Positions 37,100 through 61,194 of a DNA stretch of 64,000 nt are shown one piece after another (the stretch's first letter is position 1; every line of letters starts with the position of its first letter). Below the pieces are notes generated by a model, which made no database searches, was not told where the DNA came from, and saw only the letters and a program-made list of their open reading frames with translations. The translations under genes were made by a program, and so were the position numbers. The DNA is from Podarcis cretensis (lineage: Eukaryota): the NCBI GenBank assembly GCA_951804945.1, contig OX638157.1:17546001-17610000 (forward strand), written 5' to 3'.

Positions 37100-37266
37100 T
37101 ATGTTCAACTGCTACAACTGTAAAATAGTGGAGAACATTCTCTTGGTCCATGCACCCTGTGAGCTAGACCTTTAGCTTTCTTTCATGGCTTTCCCTCTGC
37201 CTGCTTTTGTTAACATAGTCTCATTTTGTTTTGCACATTCTTTCCATGTGAAGCATTTCTGGACTC

Positions 37267-38167
37267 AAGGGCATCCTGATCAAATTTGCAGATGACACCA
37301 AACTGGGAGGGGTGGCTAACACCCCAGAGGACAGGATCACACTTCAAAACGACCTTGACAGATTAGAGAACTGGGCCAAAACAAACAAGATGAATTTTAA
37401 CAGGGAGAAATGTAAAGTATTGCACTTGGGCAAAAAAAATGAGAGGCACAAATACAAGATGGGTGACACCTGGCTTGAGAGCAGTACATGTGAAAAGGAT
37501 CTAGGAGTCTTGGTTGACCAGAAACTTGACATGAGCCAACAGTGTGACGCGGCAGCTAAAAAAAACAATGCAATTCTGGGCTGCATCAATAGGAGTATAG
37601 CATCTAGATCAAGGGAAGTAATAGCGCCATTGTATTCTGCTCTGGTCAGACCTCACCTGGAGTACTGTGTCCAGTTCTGGGCACCACAGTTCAAGAAGGA
37701 CACTGAGAAACTGGAACGTGTCCAGAGGAGGGCAACCAAAATGGTCAAAGGCCTGGAAACGATGCCTTATAAGGAACGGCTAAGGGAGCTGGGCATGTTT
37801 AGCCTGGAGAAGAGGAGGTTAAGGGGTGATATGATAGCCGTGTTCAAATATATAAAAGGATGTCACATAGAGGAGGGAGAAAGGTTGTTTTCTGCTGCTC
37901 CAGAGAAGCGGACACGGAGCAATGGTTCCAAACTACAAGAAAGAAGATTCCACCTAAACATTAGGAAGAACTTCCTGACAGTAAGAGCTGTTCGACAGTG
38001 GAATTTGCTGCCAAGGAGTGTGGTGGAGTCTCCTTCTTTAGAGGTCTTTAAGCAGAGGCTTGACAACCATATGTCAGGAGTGCTCTGATGGTGTTTCCTG
38101 CTTGGCAGGGGGTTGGACTCGGTGGCCCTTGTGGTCTCTTCCAACTCTATGATTCTATGATTCTATG
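37267..38167 (+). mobile_element. CR1 LINE, 5' truncated, young
   Basis: Starts just before KFADDTKL. Open frame 37312-38088 (LVRPHLEYCVQFW, LERVQRRAT, RRLRGDMI). The 3' UTR ends in (ATTCTATG)n. Confidence 0.97.
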
Positions 38168-49494: not shown

Positions 49495-52400
49495 CCCCTT
49501 CATGGATCACTGCCTTGCCGTGGCGAAGGGGCTTGAATAACTCAGAGAAGCTATGAACTATGCCGAGCAGGGCACCCAAGATGAACAGGTCATAGTGGAG
49601 AGTTTTGACCAAACGTGATCCACCTGGAGGAGGAACCGGCAAGCCACTCCAGTATCCCTGCCAAGAAAACTCCATGGACAAAGACAACAGGCATATAAAA
49701 GTTATGACACTGGAAGATGAGCCCCTCAGGTCGGAAGGTGTCCAACATGCTAATGGGGAAGAGCGGAGGACAAGTACAAGTAGTTCCAGAGCTGATGAAG
49801 CGGCTGGGCCAAAGCCGAAAGGACGCTCAGTTGCGGATATGCATGGAAGCGAAAGGAAAGTCCAATGCTGTAAAGAAAAATATTGCATAGGAACCTGGAA
49901 TGTAAGAACCATGAACCTGGGTAAGTTGGATGTGGTCAAAAATGAGATGGCAAGAATAAATATTGACATCCTGGGCATCAGTGAACTAAAATGGACGGGA
50001 ATGGGCGAATTCAGTTCAGATGACCATCATATCTACTACTGTGGGCAAGAAACCCGTAAAAGAAATGGAGTGGCCCTCATAGTCAACAAAAGAGTGGCGA
50101 AAGCTGTACTGGGATGCAATCCCAAAAATGATAGAATGATCTCGATACGAATCCAAGGCAGACCTTTTAACATCACAGTAATCCAAGTTTATGCACCAAC
50201 TACTGCTGCTGAAGAAACTGAAATTGACAAATTCTATGAAGACTTACAAGACCTTATAGAAGTGACACCAAAGAAGGATGTTCTTCTCATTATAGGGGAT
50301 TGGAATGCTAAAGTAGGGAATCAAGAGATAAAAGGAACAACTGGTAAGTTTGGCCTTGGAGATCAAAACGAAGCAGGGCAAAGGCTAATAGAGTTCTGTC
50401 AAGAGAACAAACTGGTCATCACAAACACGCTTTTCCAACAACACAAGAGACGACTCTACACGTGGACATCACCAGATGGGCAGCATCGTAATCAGATTGA
50501 TTATATTCTCTGCAGCCAAAGATGGAGAAGCTCTATACAGTCAGCAAAAACAAGACCTGGAGCTGACTGTGGCTCAGATCATCAGCTTCTTATAGCAAAA
50601 TTTAAGCTTAAACTGAAGAAAGTAGGAAAAACCACTGGGCCGGTAAGATACAATCTGAATCAAATCCCTTATGAATACACAGTGGAAGTGAGGAACAGGT
50701 TTAAGGATTTAGATTTGGTGGACAGAGTGCCTGAAGAACTATGGGTGGAGGCTCGCAACATTATACAGGAGGCAGCAACAAAAACCATCCCAATGAAAAG
50801 GAAATGCAAGAAAGCAAAGTGGCTGTCCAACGAGGCCTTACAAATAGCAGGGGAGAGAAGGCAAGCAAAGGGAGATAGTGAAAGATACAGGAAATTGAAT
50901 GCAGATTTCCAAAAAATAGCAAGGAGAGACAAGAAGGCCTTCTTAAACGAGCAATGCAAAGAAATAGAGGAAAACAACAGAATGGGAAGAACCAGAGATC
51001 TGTTCAAGAAAATTGGAGATATGAAAGGAACATTTCGTACAAAGATTACCATAATAAAGGACAAAAGTGGAAAGGACCTAACAGAAGCAGAAGACATCAA
51101 GAAGAGGTGGCAAGAATACACAGAGGAATTATACCAGAAAGATATGGATGGCTCGTACAAACCAGGTAGTGTGGTTGCTGACCTTGAGCCAGACATCCTG
51201 GAGAGTGAAGTCAAATGGGCCTTAGAAAGCACTGCAAATAACAAGGCCAGTGGAAGTGATGGTATTCCAGCTGAACTATTTAAAATTTTAAAAGATGATG
51301 CTGTTAAGGTGCTACACTCAATATGCCAGCAAATTTGGAAAACTCAGCAGTGGCCAGAGGATTGGAGAAGATCAGTCTACATCCCAATCCCAAAGAAGGG
51401 CAGTGCCAAAGAATGCTCCAACTACCGCACAATTGCACTCATTTCACACGCTAGCAAGGTTATGCTTAAAATTCTACAAGGCAGGCTTAAGCAGTATGTG
51501 GACCGAGAACTCCCAGAAGTGCAAGCTGGATTTCGAAGGGGCAGAGGAACCAGAGACCAAATTGCAAACATGCGCTGGATTATGGAGAAAGCTAGAGAGT
51601 TCCAGAAACACATCTACTTCTGCTTCATTGATTATGCAAAAGCCTTTGACTGTGTCGACCACAGCAAACTATGGCAAGTTCTTAAAGAAATGGGAGTGCC
51701 TGATCACCTCATCTGTCTCCTGAGAAATCTCTATGTGGGACAAGAAGCTACAGTTAGAACTGGATATGGAACAACTGATTGGTTCAAAATTGGGAAAGGA
51801 GTACGACAAGGCTGCATATTGTCTCCCTGCTTATTTAACTTATATGCAGAATTCATCATGCGAAAGGCAGGGCTGGATGAATCCCAAGCCGGAATTAAGA
51901 TTGCCGGAAGAAATATCAACAACCTCAGATATGCAGATGACACAACCTTGATGGCAGAAAGTGAGGAGGAATTAAAGAACCTTTTAATGAGGGTGAAAGA
52001 GGAGAGCGCAAAATATGGTCTGAAGCTCAACATCAAAAAAACGATGATCATGGCCACTGGTCCCATCACCTCCTGGCAAATAGAAGGTGAAGAAATGGAG
52101 GCAGTGAGAGATTTTACTTTCTTGGGCTCCATGATCACTGCAGATGGTGACAGCAGTCACGAAATTAAAAGACGCCTGCTCCTTGGGAGAAAGGCGATGG
52201 CAAACCTAGACAGCGTCTTAAAAAGCAGAGACATCACCTTGCCAACAAAGGTCTGTATAGTTAAAGCCATGGTTTTCCCAGTAGTGATGTATGGAAGTGA
52301 GAGCTGGACCATCAAGAAGGCTGATCGCCGAAGAATTGATGCTTTTGAATTATGGTGCTGGAGGAGACTCTTGAGAGTCCCATGGACCGCAAGAAGATCA

Positions 52401-52709
52401 AACGTATCCATTCTTAAGGAAATCAGCCCTGAGTGCTCACTGGAAGGACAGATCGTGAAGCTGAGGCTTCAATACTTTGGCCACCTCATGAGAAGAGAAG
52501 ACTCCCTGGAAAAGACCCTGATGTTGGGAAAGATGGAGGGCACAAGGAGAAGGGGACGACAGAGGACAAGATGGTTGGACAGTATTCTCGAAGCTACAAA
52601 CATGAGTCTGACCAAACTGCGGGAGGCAGTGGAAGACAGGAGTGCCTGGCGTGCTCTGGTCCATGGGGTCACGAAGAGTCGGACACAACTAAACGACTAA
52701 ACAACAACA
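49495..52709 (+). mobile_element. Full-length BovB (RTE clade) LINE, 3215 bp
   Basis: 11-bp TSD ATCTGGAATCT (49484-49494, 52710-52720). BovB 3' end catggggtcacgaagagtcggacacaactaaacgactaaa(caa)n. Confidence 0.97.
49605..52700 (+). CDS. BovB APE endonuclease-reverse transcriptase ORF
   Basis: 1031-codon open frame called from a TTG; the first ATG is at 49674. EN motifs GTWNV, SE, YAP, GDWN, IDY, SDH. RT motifs QAGF, DYAKAFD, GVRQGCILSP, YADD. Confidence 0.95.
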   Translation: MTKRDPPGGGTGKPLQYPCQENSMDKDNRHIKVMTLEDEPLRSEGVQHANGEERRTSTSSSRADEAAGPKPKGRSVADMHGSERKVQCCKEKYCIGTWNVRTMNLGKLDVVKNEMARINIDILGISELKWTGMGEFSSDDHHIYYCGQETRKRNGVALIVNKRVAKAVLGCNPKNDRMISIRIQGRPFNITVIQVYAPTTAAEETEIDKFYEDLQDLIEVTPKKDVLLIIGDWNAKVGNQEIKGTTGKFGLGDQNEAGQRLIEFCQENKLVITNTLFQQHKRRLYTWTSPDGQHRNQIDYILCSQRWRSSIQSAKTRPGADCGSDHQLLIAKFKLKLKKVGKTTGPVRYNLNQIPYEYTVEVRNRFKDLDLVDRVPEELWVEARNIIQEAATKTIPMKRKCKKAKWLSNEALQIAGERRQAKGDSERYRKLNADFQKIARRDKKAFLNEQCKEIEENNRMGRTRDLFKKIGDMKGTFRTKITIIKDKSGKDLTEAEDIKKRWQEYTEELYQKDMDGSYKPGSVVADLEPDILESEVKWALESTANNKASGSDGIPAELFKILKDDAVKVLHSICQQIWKTQQWPEDWRRSVYIPIPKKGSAKECSNYRTIALISHASKVMLKILQGRLKQYVDRELPEVQAGFRRGRGTRDQIANMRWIMEKAREFQKHIYFCFIDYAKAFDCVDHSKLWQVLKEMGVPDHLICLLRNLYVGQEATVRTGYGTTDWFKIGKGVRQGCILSPCLFNLYAEFIMRKAGLDESQAGIKIAGRNINNLRYADDTTLMAESEEELKNLLMRVKEESAKYGLKLNIKKTMIMATGPITSWQIEGEEMEAVRDFTFLGSMITADGDSSHEIKRRLLLGRKAMANLDSVLKSRDITLPTKVCIVKAMVFPVVMYGSESWTIKKADRRRIDAFELWCWRRLLRVPWTARRSNVSILKEISPECSLEGQIVKLRLQYFGHLMRREDSLEKTLMLGKMEGTRRRGRQRTRWLDSILEATNMSLTKLREAVEDRSAWRALVHGVTKSRTQLND

Positions 52710-56981: not shown

Positions 56982-58875
56982 AAATCACAGTTGCGCTAAA
57001 TGTTATCAAAGCTCAGTACTTTCCCATAAATAGATTGTCAGTTGGGCCAGCTAAGATTTAAAATTTTCTAAAGTTCAGAAATATTGAGATATATTTCCAT
57101 AATCAATGATGAATCTGAATGCTGTTCTTGTCTCCAGATGGCAAGGTGGAATGCTGCATACCCAAGGGCATATATTTGCAGGGAAGCAGATTTCTCAGAG
57201 AGTACTAGTGTATTAGCATGATGTGATATGATAAACACCGTACAATATGATGTGGGAGTACACTAGCCACTGCAGTTTGGTTTTTATTGTAATTGAGATG
57301 ACTGGAATTCAAACAGTTTAACTGCAGGAATTCTGCCTCACTTAATCCATGGATTGTGCCCCCATCAGAAGATAAAATAACTTCGTTTTGTCAGACTTTT
57401 TGAGGAGGTTGTGTAAGCTTCATAGAATGGTTGAGGCAGTTCCCCCCTCTCTCGCTTTACTGGAAGAGTGTTCCAAGAAGCTCAGAATCTTGGGCAAGCT
57501 CTTAAGTAGTAAGGAATGGGTGAAAAGTATCCTCCCTCACCCTATGCACCTTTTATCTCTAATTGGATATTACCTGTTCATAATCTCAGATCTCAAATTC
57601 TGACTCTCAGCTTTAGAAGTTAATAGATGGATCTTTGTTTTATAGATTTCTTTTATATAAATAAGGTGATTTACACTCCTAAGCACTTCAGAACTATGGA
57701 GGTCATTGCCTTTTCATAAATTAGATATAGGTCTAAGAGCTGAACTCAAAAGTATAGTATCATAAGAACAATGTTTATTATTCAAGCAATGCAACTAGTT
57801 GATACCTTTTAATCCCATTAGCAACTTCCCTCATAGGAAAAAACACAAGGCTTGAAGCTCTTATTTTTATATCATTTTTGGACTGATCAATTGAGATGAT
57901 GCTTCCTTCTCTCCTAATCAGATCATTTAAAATCTGTCAATGTCTTCAGTGGAGTATCTTGGGGTAGCAGGATTGGCAGTTTTAGGATTTTAAATAAAAC
58001 ATCAATACTTTCCTTCCAGACTATGTGGCATCAAGATAATAAAAAGGTTGAATTAATTTGCTATTTGCAATATCACTTTCATCATCTCTCCACAAAGCAG
58101 GTGCAAAACAGTATATTTAATATATTATCTTAAGATTTGAACTTTCTCCCCTAGTGGCAAGTGTCTCTCACAGAATTCGTCATTCGTTGGGGGCTGACAT
58201 CCTCTTGGGGAAGTGATAGCAGAATAGGATTTTTATCATTTCCCCCCTCTTTGTGTAGAGCCAGACTTTGGCATCTTTGGCTTTTGTTTCACAGACAATT
58301 GAATACAGATTGGGATCAGTGTTTATGGCAACAAGTATGAGGGGAAACCTTCCCCTTTGCTTCTAGGCAGCTTCTGTTATCTGGTTTGAAATGTCGAGTA
58401 TTCTTCAGTGAGCTAAAAGTGAGAGCAAGAGATAACATTTACGGTGGCATAAAGATGCAGCCAGATATTTGCACCAAAGACATTGTTCCCTCCATATTCT
58501 GTATGGTGATTTTAATGAAATATCCCCTAAAATGATCCTGGAAATATATCTCTAAATATAGTATTGTTATGCATTGCATATTAATATTGCAGTTTCAAGG
58601 GCAAGATTCAGGCTGTTTTTACACCGTGGTTCTTGTACCTAATGTGTTTGTAATGCAAGTATGAAAGTTACATTGGTCAGAATGTACATTTGCATTATTC
58701 AGCCTGCTGCCCCTTCACAGTCTCTTTTGCATTAGCAACATGGCAGGTTAAAGCAGAGTAAGAAGAAAGCAGTGCTTGGAAAGCTGGTGTGCTTCAGAAA
58801 GAAATAATAAAAATATGATTTCTAAAACAGGCAGAAAAATCATTAAGTCGTCCACCAAGACCCTCAGCAATTTTC

Positions 58876-60021
58876 TTTCTTTTTTTTTTTTAAAAAAATA
58901 ATTTTTATTAACTGGCCAATCAAATCAAATCAAATCAAATCACATAAATTCCGAATTACAATCCGAATTTTAAATTTTGTTGAGGGGACCCATATTTCAA
59001 GATTCGAAGGGGGATTCTGATCATCATCTTGCTACTGCGTTAATGTCCAAATCAGTCCAAACAAAGTTCATAATTCTATCCAGTCTTACCTTGCTGTTTC
59101 CGCATCACCTCTTGTTCATATATTTTCTCTTTTTTCTTTATGATCTCTTCTGATAGTCTCCTTAAGCCGATAAACACCAATAATAATCCTGTGTGAATTT
59201 TTCCGTTCTTCCAATCCTCAAATCGAGATGGATTCCATATATCATCGCCTTCATAGATAACAGCGCTCTTTCCATCATTAATTACAGAACTGTCGTTCTT
59301 AAGTCCCACTGAGGAGTTTGACCCACAATATAAAAACAGCTCTATTTCTCTATTTCTCCTCTCAGACTCAAGTCCTCCGACAGAACTTCCCAATATGGCG
59401 ACGGCACTTTTAACTGCGTCATTCCAAAGCCCTTATACATTCCACGCTCTTCTCAAAACATGCTTTGGTTCGAAAGTTTACCTCCACACAGCCTTAAATC
59501 CACAGCTTAATTCCTTAAAACGACATTTCTGGCTTGTGGGGGGGGGGTTCTTGTTTAATCACATATAAGAAAGAAAGGAAGGTTTTTTTCCCCTCCCCCA
59601 TCAGTCCCTTTGCCATCCCGAGTCTTGGCGTATCTTCTTGTGATTTATACTTGCTCCTTCGACTCTTCTTGCTTTATCAGAGATCTCTTCTGTTAGCAGT
59701 CTTTACTCCCCCTTCTTCCTTGAAATATGTGCATTCGCTTCATCCAAATTGTTTCTTTTGAAGTTCTTGCAGCTAGTGGCACGGATCAGAGATGGCGTCC
59801 AGGAGCACCGAAATCCCACAGGAGGGCATTGTGCCTAGTGCCCCCATCCCTACAAATTCGGGGGTGGTATAGGGCACAGCAGCAAGGGCAGTCCCACCCC
59901 ACAATCCTGGGGGGGGGGGGTAGGGAGGCTATTTACTCCCATCACAGCCTCCAAATTACCTCGTGTGGGTCGGAGAGATGTTATTGTCAGCCATCTTCTG
60001 ATGCGCCCCCTAGTGGCCCCT
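58876..60021 (-). mobile_element. Non-autonomous L1-mobilised retroelement (about 1.15 kb)
   Basis: 17-bp TSD GACCCTCAGCAATTTTC (58859-58875, 60022-60038). AATAAA and poly(A) on minus. G-rich 5' end with AAGATGGC. No RT or EN coding. Confidence 0.85.
60002..60019 (-). promoter_or_regulatory. CTCF consensus-like motif
   Basis: Minus strand GGCCACTAGGGGGCGCA versus the consensus TGGCCAC(C/T)AGGGGGCGC. Binding is not shown. Confidence 0.55.
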
Positions 60022-61194
60022 GACCCTCAGCAATTTTCAAGTGGTTCACAAGGAAAGGAAAGTTTGGGTACTACCAACTTAGAATATTCTTCTTCAAAGT
60101 AATCTTCTATAAATTAGAAGAGTCTGAAAGCATTCAAAAAAGCCTAACACCACCAGCACTGCCCCTCTCCCACTCCAGTTGTTGTTTTTTAGGGTATTGT
60201 AGAATATCATCATTATACTCTGGCCCTGGGTAATTGTGTAATATGAGAACAAAGCAATTAGGTTAATTTACACACTTAATTAGTTTATTGCTTTTTTTTG
60301 TCCCCTAACATCTTTGCTGAAAATTAAGCTTTGATTCCATTAATTAATAAGCATGTGCACATTTTGCAACACCTGTGTGAAAGAAAAGCTCAGAAACAAA
60401 TAGGACGGGGTTTCATTTCCCACTCTGAAATCATTCCATACAAAGAATGATATCATACTGCTTTTTTCAAATCCATTTGGACCAGCTTGGTGCAACCTTC
60501 AATGAGCAGCTCACTTTATTTCCAACTTGTGCAGTGAGAAATGGGTTATCTTTTTTCATCACACAGTATGGAAATGTAGTGATCCGCTCATGGAGGAAAA
60601 GAGCAGACTGCATCACGGACAGCTTGGCAGCAGGATTGAGCAGGACTCAGGCTGTCTTCCTCTCTCCTGAGCCATAATCTCTGATCAGAATCACAATCTC
60701 CCGATTTCAAACTTATCACAAATTTCACAGCTATTGCTGACGGAAATCGAGTGGGGCAGGCTGTGAAAAGGGCTGGAGGGCTGGAGGTTCCCATCCCTGA
60801 GTTAGATGTTTCTCCTCATTGCTTGTTTTTATTGATTAGTGGCACTTATGATTTAGAAATTCTGCAAGAAGACAGAATAGGCCATTGTATTTTAGGTACC
60901 CATTTGTAAGAACTCGATTCAGTAGTGTGACTGTACCTACACTTTGTATTCTTTGTATTCTTCATTGTATTCTTTTCGGCACATGCTAAAATGATTGTTT
61001 TAACAAAGCTACCCAGATGCTTTGAAATGCTGGTGCAAATTTTAATCCGTTTTAGTCTTTTAACTTCTGGTATGTTTTAATGTTCTGTATTTCCCCCCTG
61101 ATTTTATGGTTTAATCTTTTTGTAAACTGCTTTGAGGTGGTGTTTTTTTAAAACAACAACAACAAAGTGGTGTATACATTTTATGAACAATAAA

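Follow-up and report, generated by a model that had tools for sequence, protein, structure and literature searches.

A 64-kb stretch of lizard DNA (the window, i.e. the whole of the sequence analysed) contains a segment that had been taken for an apparently complete, L1-dependent retroposon beginning with CTCF and YY1-like motifs. The questions that it raises are whether it belongs to a genuine mobile family, what machinery moves it, and what the motifs at its head mean to the element itself.

The copy at 58876-60021

The element is 1,146 bp long, lies on the minus strand between two exact 17-bp direct repeats, and reads on that strand from a G-run head through (TTTGA)n and AATAAA to an A-tail. 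Its parts are the following.

58859..58875, no strand: target-site duplication (TSD) flanking the element's 3' end, an exact 17-bp direct repeat
58876..60021, minus strand: full-length non-coding retroposon copy of subfamily E, ~2% from the family majority
58876..58909, minus strand: AATAAA, short T-run and A-tail, with the terminal ~25 nt resembling clade-1 L1 tails of the same genome
~58918..58942, minus strand: (TTTGA)n microsatellite close to the 3' end
59414..59421, minus strand: TGACGCAG island, invariant in A-F, with flanks just ~45-50% alike
59772..60021, minus strand: GC-rich 5' region (~61% GC), likely internal promoter
59954..59965, minus strand: splice-donor-like island, retained across all subfamilies and sister family F
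59989..59997, minus strand: YY1-like core AAGATGGCT at +25, with the canonical form in sister family F
60003..60016, minus strand: CTCF core motif CCACTAGGGGGCGC at +6 to +19, all 14 bases of which agree with the canonical core given in PMC5694663
60022..60038, no strand: TSD flanking the element's 5' end, with TT/GAAAA as the target in the element's orientation (locus L001)

The TSD and target of the original prediction are thus confirmed, and its AATAAA (58904-58909), poly(A) (58876-58891) and (TTTGA)n were all read directly. The near-consensus CTCF head is the sole exact match to the strict consensus within the 64-kb window, and the YY1-like core is present as claimed, one base off the canonical form in subfamilies A-E. 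The TGACGCAG island is presumably CRE/AP-1-like. The retained CpGs are also there, but they are a sign of youth; CpGs decay across the copies ~6-9x as fast as other sites, and the copies are therefore probably methylated.

The element appears to encode nothing. None of the six frames tested has a Pfam match better than E 0.2, consistent with the predicted lack of reverse transcriptase and endonuclease, and the claim that there is no tRNA-type head is upheld by an empty tRNA search and by the absence of an A/B-box pair from the element. The sole Rfam match, to NEAT1_2, was rejected as chance (26.9 bits against a cut-off of 60). The 105-aa frame described previously was not recovered; the longest stop-to-stop frames are instead 118 aa (minus strand) and 103 aa (plus strand), and the former is specific to this copy, as it is interrupted in the family majority. 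The longest sense ATG frames of the family span 38-69 aa, leaving no ORF1p of the kind that a HAL1 element encodes. Nor is there a head derived from tRNA, 7SL, 5S or snRNA with A and B boxes, as in a Pol III SINE, and three to eight runs of four or more T residues lie inside the element.

When the two sides of the insertion (window positions ~58830-58875 and 60022-60050) are joined, the resulting empty site matches contigs of other loci, although weakly and with short sides, hinting that the element may have landed in a short dispersed repeat. Assembled contigs of three organisms are dense in family copies, and one contig runs from the unique flank into the head; this insertion is therefore common to at least one other organism. 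Elsewhere in the window are a 3' fragment of an active clade-1 L1 (41420-42755, minus strand), what is presumably a long RTE/BovB-type frame (49596-52700, plus strand) and a fragment that we take to be of CR1 type (37252-38088, plus strand).

The family, its subfamilies and a sister family

Searching the genome yielded 2,168 first-look candidates, of which 40 were scored, and all 40 were near full length, with 93-100% identity. A 24-base head pattern has 1,040 genome matches at no more than one mismatch (reversed control, 0), a lower bound for the 5' heads of the family, and a 3' 33-mer specific to the branch of the window copy has 286. Forty loci were chosen by the 3' pattern: the head was recognised by pattern in 26 and by alignment in another 4 (30 in all), and the other 10 are 5'-truncated. 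The predicted complete, multi-copy, non-coding element therefore has at least 1,040 heads and is not single-copy. The family is genuine and recently active.

A tree of 124 copies resolves five subfamilies, A-E, with three copies in none. Mean divergence from the subfamily's own majority is 1.0% in A (31 copies), 2.8% in B (33 copies), 5.2% in C (9 copies) and 1.9% in D (12 copies); subfamily E, which holds the window copy, has 36 copies and a figure of 1.8%, biased low because many of its copies were picked for likeness to that copy. Subfamilies A and E differ at 13.5% of sites. Subfamily A is the youngest and largest.

A looser head search detected a sister family, F, which is ~1.19 kb long, non-coding and flanked by TSDs of 16-18 bp. 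It is collinear with A-E (local score 481, versus 121 +/- 16 for shuffles). In a comparison of B with F, conservation across the superfamily peaks in the first 60 nt, at 80% identity versus 30-63% in the body, as expected if the element needs that stretch. Two partial relatives (L162 and L279) are intermediate between A-E and F, and the superfamily thus exceeds the sample. A search of the openly readable literature found no description of the family, which is apparently undescribed but may already sit in Repbase or Dfam. Inside one family copy, with a 5-bp duplication, is an LTR-type (Gypsy-like) insert of 5.5 kb whose frames span 349 and 1,334 codons (L033:1269-6778).

Mobilisation, promoter and origin

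L1-driven insertions are reported to fall into three categories: full-length, truncated and inverted (PMC2912911). TSDs of at least 12 bp were found in 116 of 147 copies, with a mode of 17, and the target is biased towards Y/RAAA: of these 116, 95 have a pyrimidine ahead of the cut, and 77-82 have A at the three positions that follow the first base after it. A 5' inversion is seen in two copies (L052 and L138), both with TSDs. The L1-type signatures that had been read from a single copy therefore extend across copies, from the TSDs and the Y/R target to the poly(A) tail, and include truncation and inversion at the 5' end. A candidate partner is also at hand: 20 of the best 30 genome matches to an L1 endonuclease fall within uninterrupted frames of 1,245-1,247 codons, and an L1 family is active in the genome. 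An L1 nested in one family copy likewise has a 17-bp TSD, and the terminal ~25 nt of the element match clade-1 L1 tails, although in a short, A/T-rich stretch and at E ~1e-4 to 3e-3 against a small set, a likeness that is weak by itself.

No physical link to an L1 body was detected. Among 31, 40 and 20 head loci examined, no head continues into ORF1 or ORF2, and no tail is joined to ORF2 (0/40). The three L1 heads and five 3' UTRs examined include no parent with the same head or body, and the 5' end of the element is not common to those three heads or to one other LINE. The L1 partner is accordingly inferred from the signatures of insertion, which argue strongly for dependence of the family on L1.

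Several features point to an internal Pol II promoter. The absence of an A/B-box pair, the internal T-runs, the AATAAA, the 61% GC of the first 250 nt and the mostly complete 5' ends all suggest the Pol II type. Mammalian L1 begins with a G-run followed by a YY1 site, for which a role at that start is described (PMC5381506), and family F begins with a G-run and then AAGATGGCGGA, an 11-mer identical to the mammalian L1 start. A YY1-type promoter within the first ~60-250 nt would start the RNA in the terminal G-run; the transcript would be polyadenylated at AATAAA, captured in trans by L1 ORF2p, and inserted by target-primed reverse transcription. Taken together, it is likely that this is a non-coding, L1-dependent family with an internal YY1-type promoter, in which the CTCF match is an allelic state of the head.

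The same conserved head could belong to a host transcript, with the copies being processed retrocopies of one lncRNA or mRNA and no self-propagating family behind them. The head does resemble a housekeeping-gene first exon, with an ATG within the YY1 site followed by a donor-like AG/GTAATT, and retrocopies bear the same TSD and tail marks. However, the nested subfamilies with diagnostic changes, together with the collinear but ~50%-diverged F, point to successive source copies, and there are >1,000 copies, mostly full-length. Essentially every copy retains the donor-like site unspliced, and a search for spliced retrocopies among those that deviate there found none (0/9). This reading is largely refuted, and very improbable.

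The origin of the element is more evenly balanced. It may descend, as a long-decayed HAL1 or as a bipartite derivative, from an L1 family that is extinct or was not sampled, and be composed of a 5' UTR, an eroded ORF1 and a 3' tip, and still mobile after the loss of its frame; this differs from the preferred explanation in origin only, and is a serious possibility that falls somewhat short of even. The architecture is L1-like, with a GC-rich first 250 nt, a body of ~60% purine, a YY1-type start and an L1-like terminal ~25 nt, and, on the figures given in PMC5381506, the length suits either a lizard 5' UTR or ORF1 with a short UTR. Searches for the expected remnants argue against it. A decayed ORF2 C-terminus suspected by eye in the 3' half gave no profile signal, and a decayed ORF1 gave none with clade-1 or clade-2-type profiles (the latter from a single sequence); ORF1 and ORF2-C-terminal profiles, including a frameshift-tolerant alignment, scored 13-19 versus null means of 15-16. 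An nhmmer search against 12 LINE UTR or spacer segments found no match. Such erosion would be hard to see, as a control ORF1 with 30% random substitutions was barely detectable and one with 40% was lost, and B and F differ by about as much. A genome search with Pfam PF02994 returned nothing even though ORF1s exist, and is uninformative. Three local L1 families begin with GACTTCCGG, unlike the element head, and have no CTCF match; this start agrees with the published lizard clade-1 start (PMC5381506).

Three other sets of loci were noted during this work. An intact, divergent 6.6-kb L1 family (L314-L316) has an ORF2 of 1,290 codons and a long inter-ORF spacer, and also begins with GACTTCCGG. 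A separate, young ~5.5-kb LINE (L205, L207, L208 and L211) has 551- and 1,114-codon frames, an (AGT)n tail and ~45 heads, and likewise begins with a YY1 core followed by a donor-like site. Finally, a 5.2-kb candidate autonomous element (L204; G000:C10:8798000-8805000) proved to be a normal B-type copy with a canonical YY1 site and a nested, 5'-truncated L1 of 4.07 kb; the 1,247-codon ORF2 of this L1 is intact and in the same orientation, creating a chance promoter-plus-ORF2 chimera.

The CTCF motif and comparison with known systems

The motif is present in the majority sequences of A, B, E and F, and missing from C and D. It occurs once per element, at +6 in A, B, E and part of F, and the differences among these fall at tolerated positions. 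Its absence from the consensus, which had been named as grounds for rejecting the prediction, thus holds for C and D only. Genome counts used a strict 14-base string that we take to be the CTCF consensus. This string has 4,765 exact genome matches (reversed control, 90), and 633 of them (13.3%) run on into family sequence; however, a strict consensus captures a minority of real sites, and the family share of all bound sites should thus be much lower than 13%. The predicted scattering of CTCF motifs is borne out by these 633 copies, and the family is over-represented among genome motif words. The form found in A makes up 80 of the first 100 family motif matches listed. Another CTCF-consensus word, CCACCAGATGGCGC, accounts for ~22 of the first 100 genome matches listed (contig C1), suggesting that a second, unrelated repeat family likewise disperses CTCF motifs.

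The motif is dispensable for amplification: C and D lost it by a one-G deletion and yet amplified, and many F copies are without it. Family F is mixed in this respect, with 17 distinct copies carrying the motif by a pattern that requires the spacing, and none of 10 further heads chosen from those that this pattern missed. Non-CpG motif changes, compared with those of the body, number 7/180 versus 300/15,014 in B, 13/346 versus 316/29,331 in E and 0/144 versus 152/12,142 in D. Purifying selection on the motif after insertion is not seen in these counts, which have low power and in which G-run slippage may inflate the motif figures. The fast CpG decay, a sign that copies are methylated, also weighs against a role for CTCF. 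The CTCF match would then be one allelic state of a promoter head conserved for the element's own transcription, and its dispersal a by-product.

It is alternatively conceivable, although unlikely, that CTCF or its paralogue BORIS is a working part of the promoter, giving motif-bearing subfamilies an advantage in germline expression, and that copies so bound go on to serve as new insulators or as anchors of loops. The constant position of the motif, with variation confined to tolerated positions, is in keeping with this. So is its form in A, the youngest subfamily (1% divergence), where a G-to-T variant matches, over 16 contiguous bases, a 'super motif' used in bioRxiv 10.64898/2026.09.16.752217. 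Subfamilies A-E also have no CpG at motif positions 2-3, where alone methylation had a strong effect in the in vitro study of PMC5694663. BORIS exists in reptiles (PMC2515639), and mammalian BORIS is able to make start sites of CTCF sites that lie in clusters (PMC10832218); this literature motivates a promoter role but gives it no direct support. Against it are the amplification of subfamilies without the motif, the lack of constraint after insertion, and the single motif per element, whereas the BORIS activation reported in PMC10832218 concerns clustered sites. The broader reading, of a long-lived, protein-free, Pol II-type L1 parasite with a near-optimal, methylation-tolerant CTCF/BORIS promoter site, whose latest burst seeded lacertid genomes with several hundred real CTCF sites, some of them boundaries, is doubtful, if slightly less so. 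Under the preferred reading, of an allelic state dispersed as a by-product, some copies are still probably bound by CTCF.

The spread of CTCF sites by retroposons is established for mammals, and the literature search found no squamate case. In this family, a near-ideal motif in a subfamily of ~1% divergence, next to sisters that lack it through a one-base change, provides a natural experiment on new reptile CTCF sites and boundaries. If real sites and boundaries were planted, the family would offer a reptile parallel to the SINE-driven CTCF expansions of mammals, and its motif-less subfamilies would serve as built-in controls. If CTCF does not bind, this is an ordinary selfish family, apparently undescribed, and useful for phylogenetic markers.

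The closest parallels for the dispersal are the rodent B2, dog SINEC and opossum MAR SINEs, in which a strong CTCF core is also spread by a retroposon; the hundreds of sites in the lizard family are on the scale reported for dog and opossum, but those SINEs have ChIP-verified binding (PMC3368268), whereas the lizard motifs are candidate sites. The lizard element also differs in its 1.1-kb length and in a motif placed at the extreme 5' end beside a YY1-like site. The proposed analogy to B2 thus extends to motif dispersal and to nothing else, given the lack of a tRNA-type Pol III head.

The SVA and LAVA elements of primates are non-coding, with AATAAA and a poly(A) tail. They resemble the lizard family in these respects and in mobilisation by L1 in trans, which for the lizard family is deduced from insertion signatures. 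Unlike them, the lizard element has no evident VNTR, Alu-like or retroviral part, and is not composite as far as detected. Mobilisation of SVA by L1 is reported in PMC2912911.

Bipartite ORF-less LINEs and HAL1 share with the lizard family a non-autonomous nature, a presumed Pol II promoter and LINE-like termini (PMC5786205). That survey gives ORF-less bipartite forms for RTE, Ingi, Vingi and R2 only, and states that HAL1 keeps ORF1. The lizard family differs in being ORF-less with L1 signatures and with no parental 5' end detected, and an ORF-less 1.1-kb element with such signatures and a YY1-type head would fill the slot left empty there for L1-derived bipartite elements (PMC5786205).

In overall features the family is most like Sadhu of Arabidopsis, which is non-coding, ~0.9-1.1 kb long, polyadenylated and flanked by TSDs at LINE-type targets, and which, as described in PMC2848041, has a conserved 5' motif, no tRNA or 5S head or A/B boxes, ancient divergent subfamilies and no identified parent. 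Sadhu differs, according to the same source, in being a plant family of 39 sequences versus >1,000, in which the 5' motif is a different one and a CTCF site is lacking. The likeness is one of features, and a sequence relationship is not expected.

At the level of the head, the nearest counterpart is the mammalian L1 5' terminus, to which F is identical over the 11-mer, as given in PMC5381506. The lizard L1s examined differ from mammalian L1 in their GACTTCCGG start, and the lizard family differs from the mammalian terminus in placing a CTCF core between the G-run and the YY1 site.
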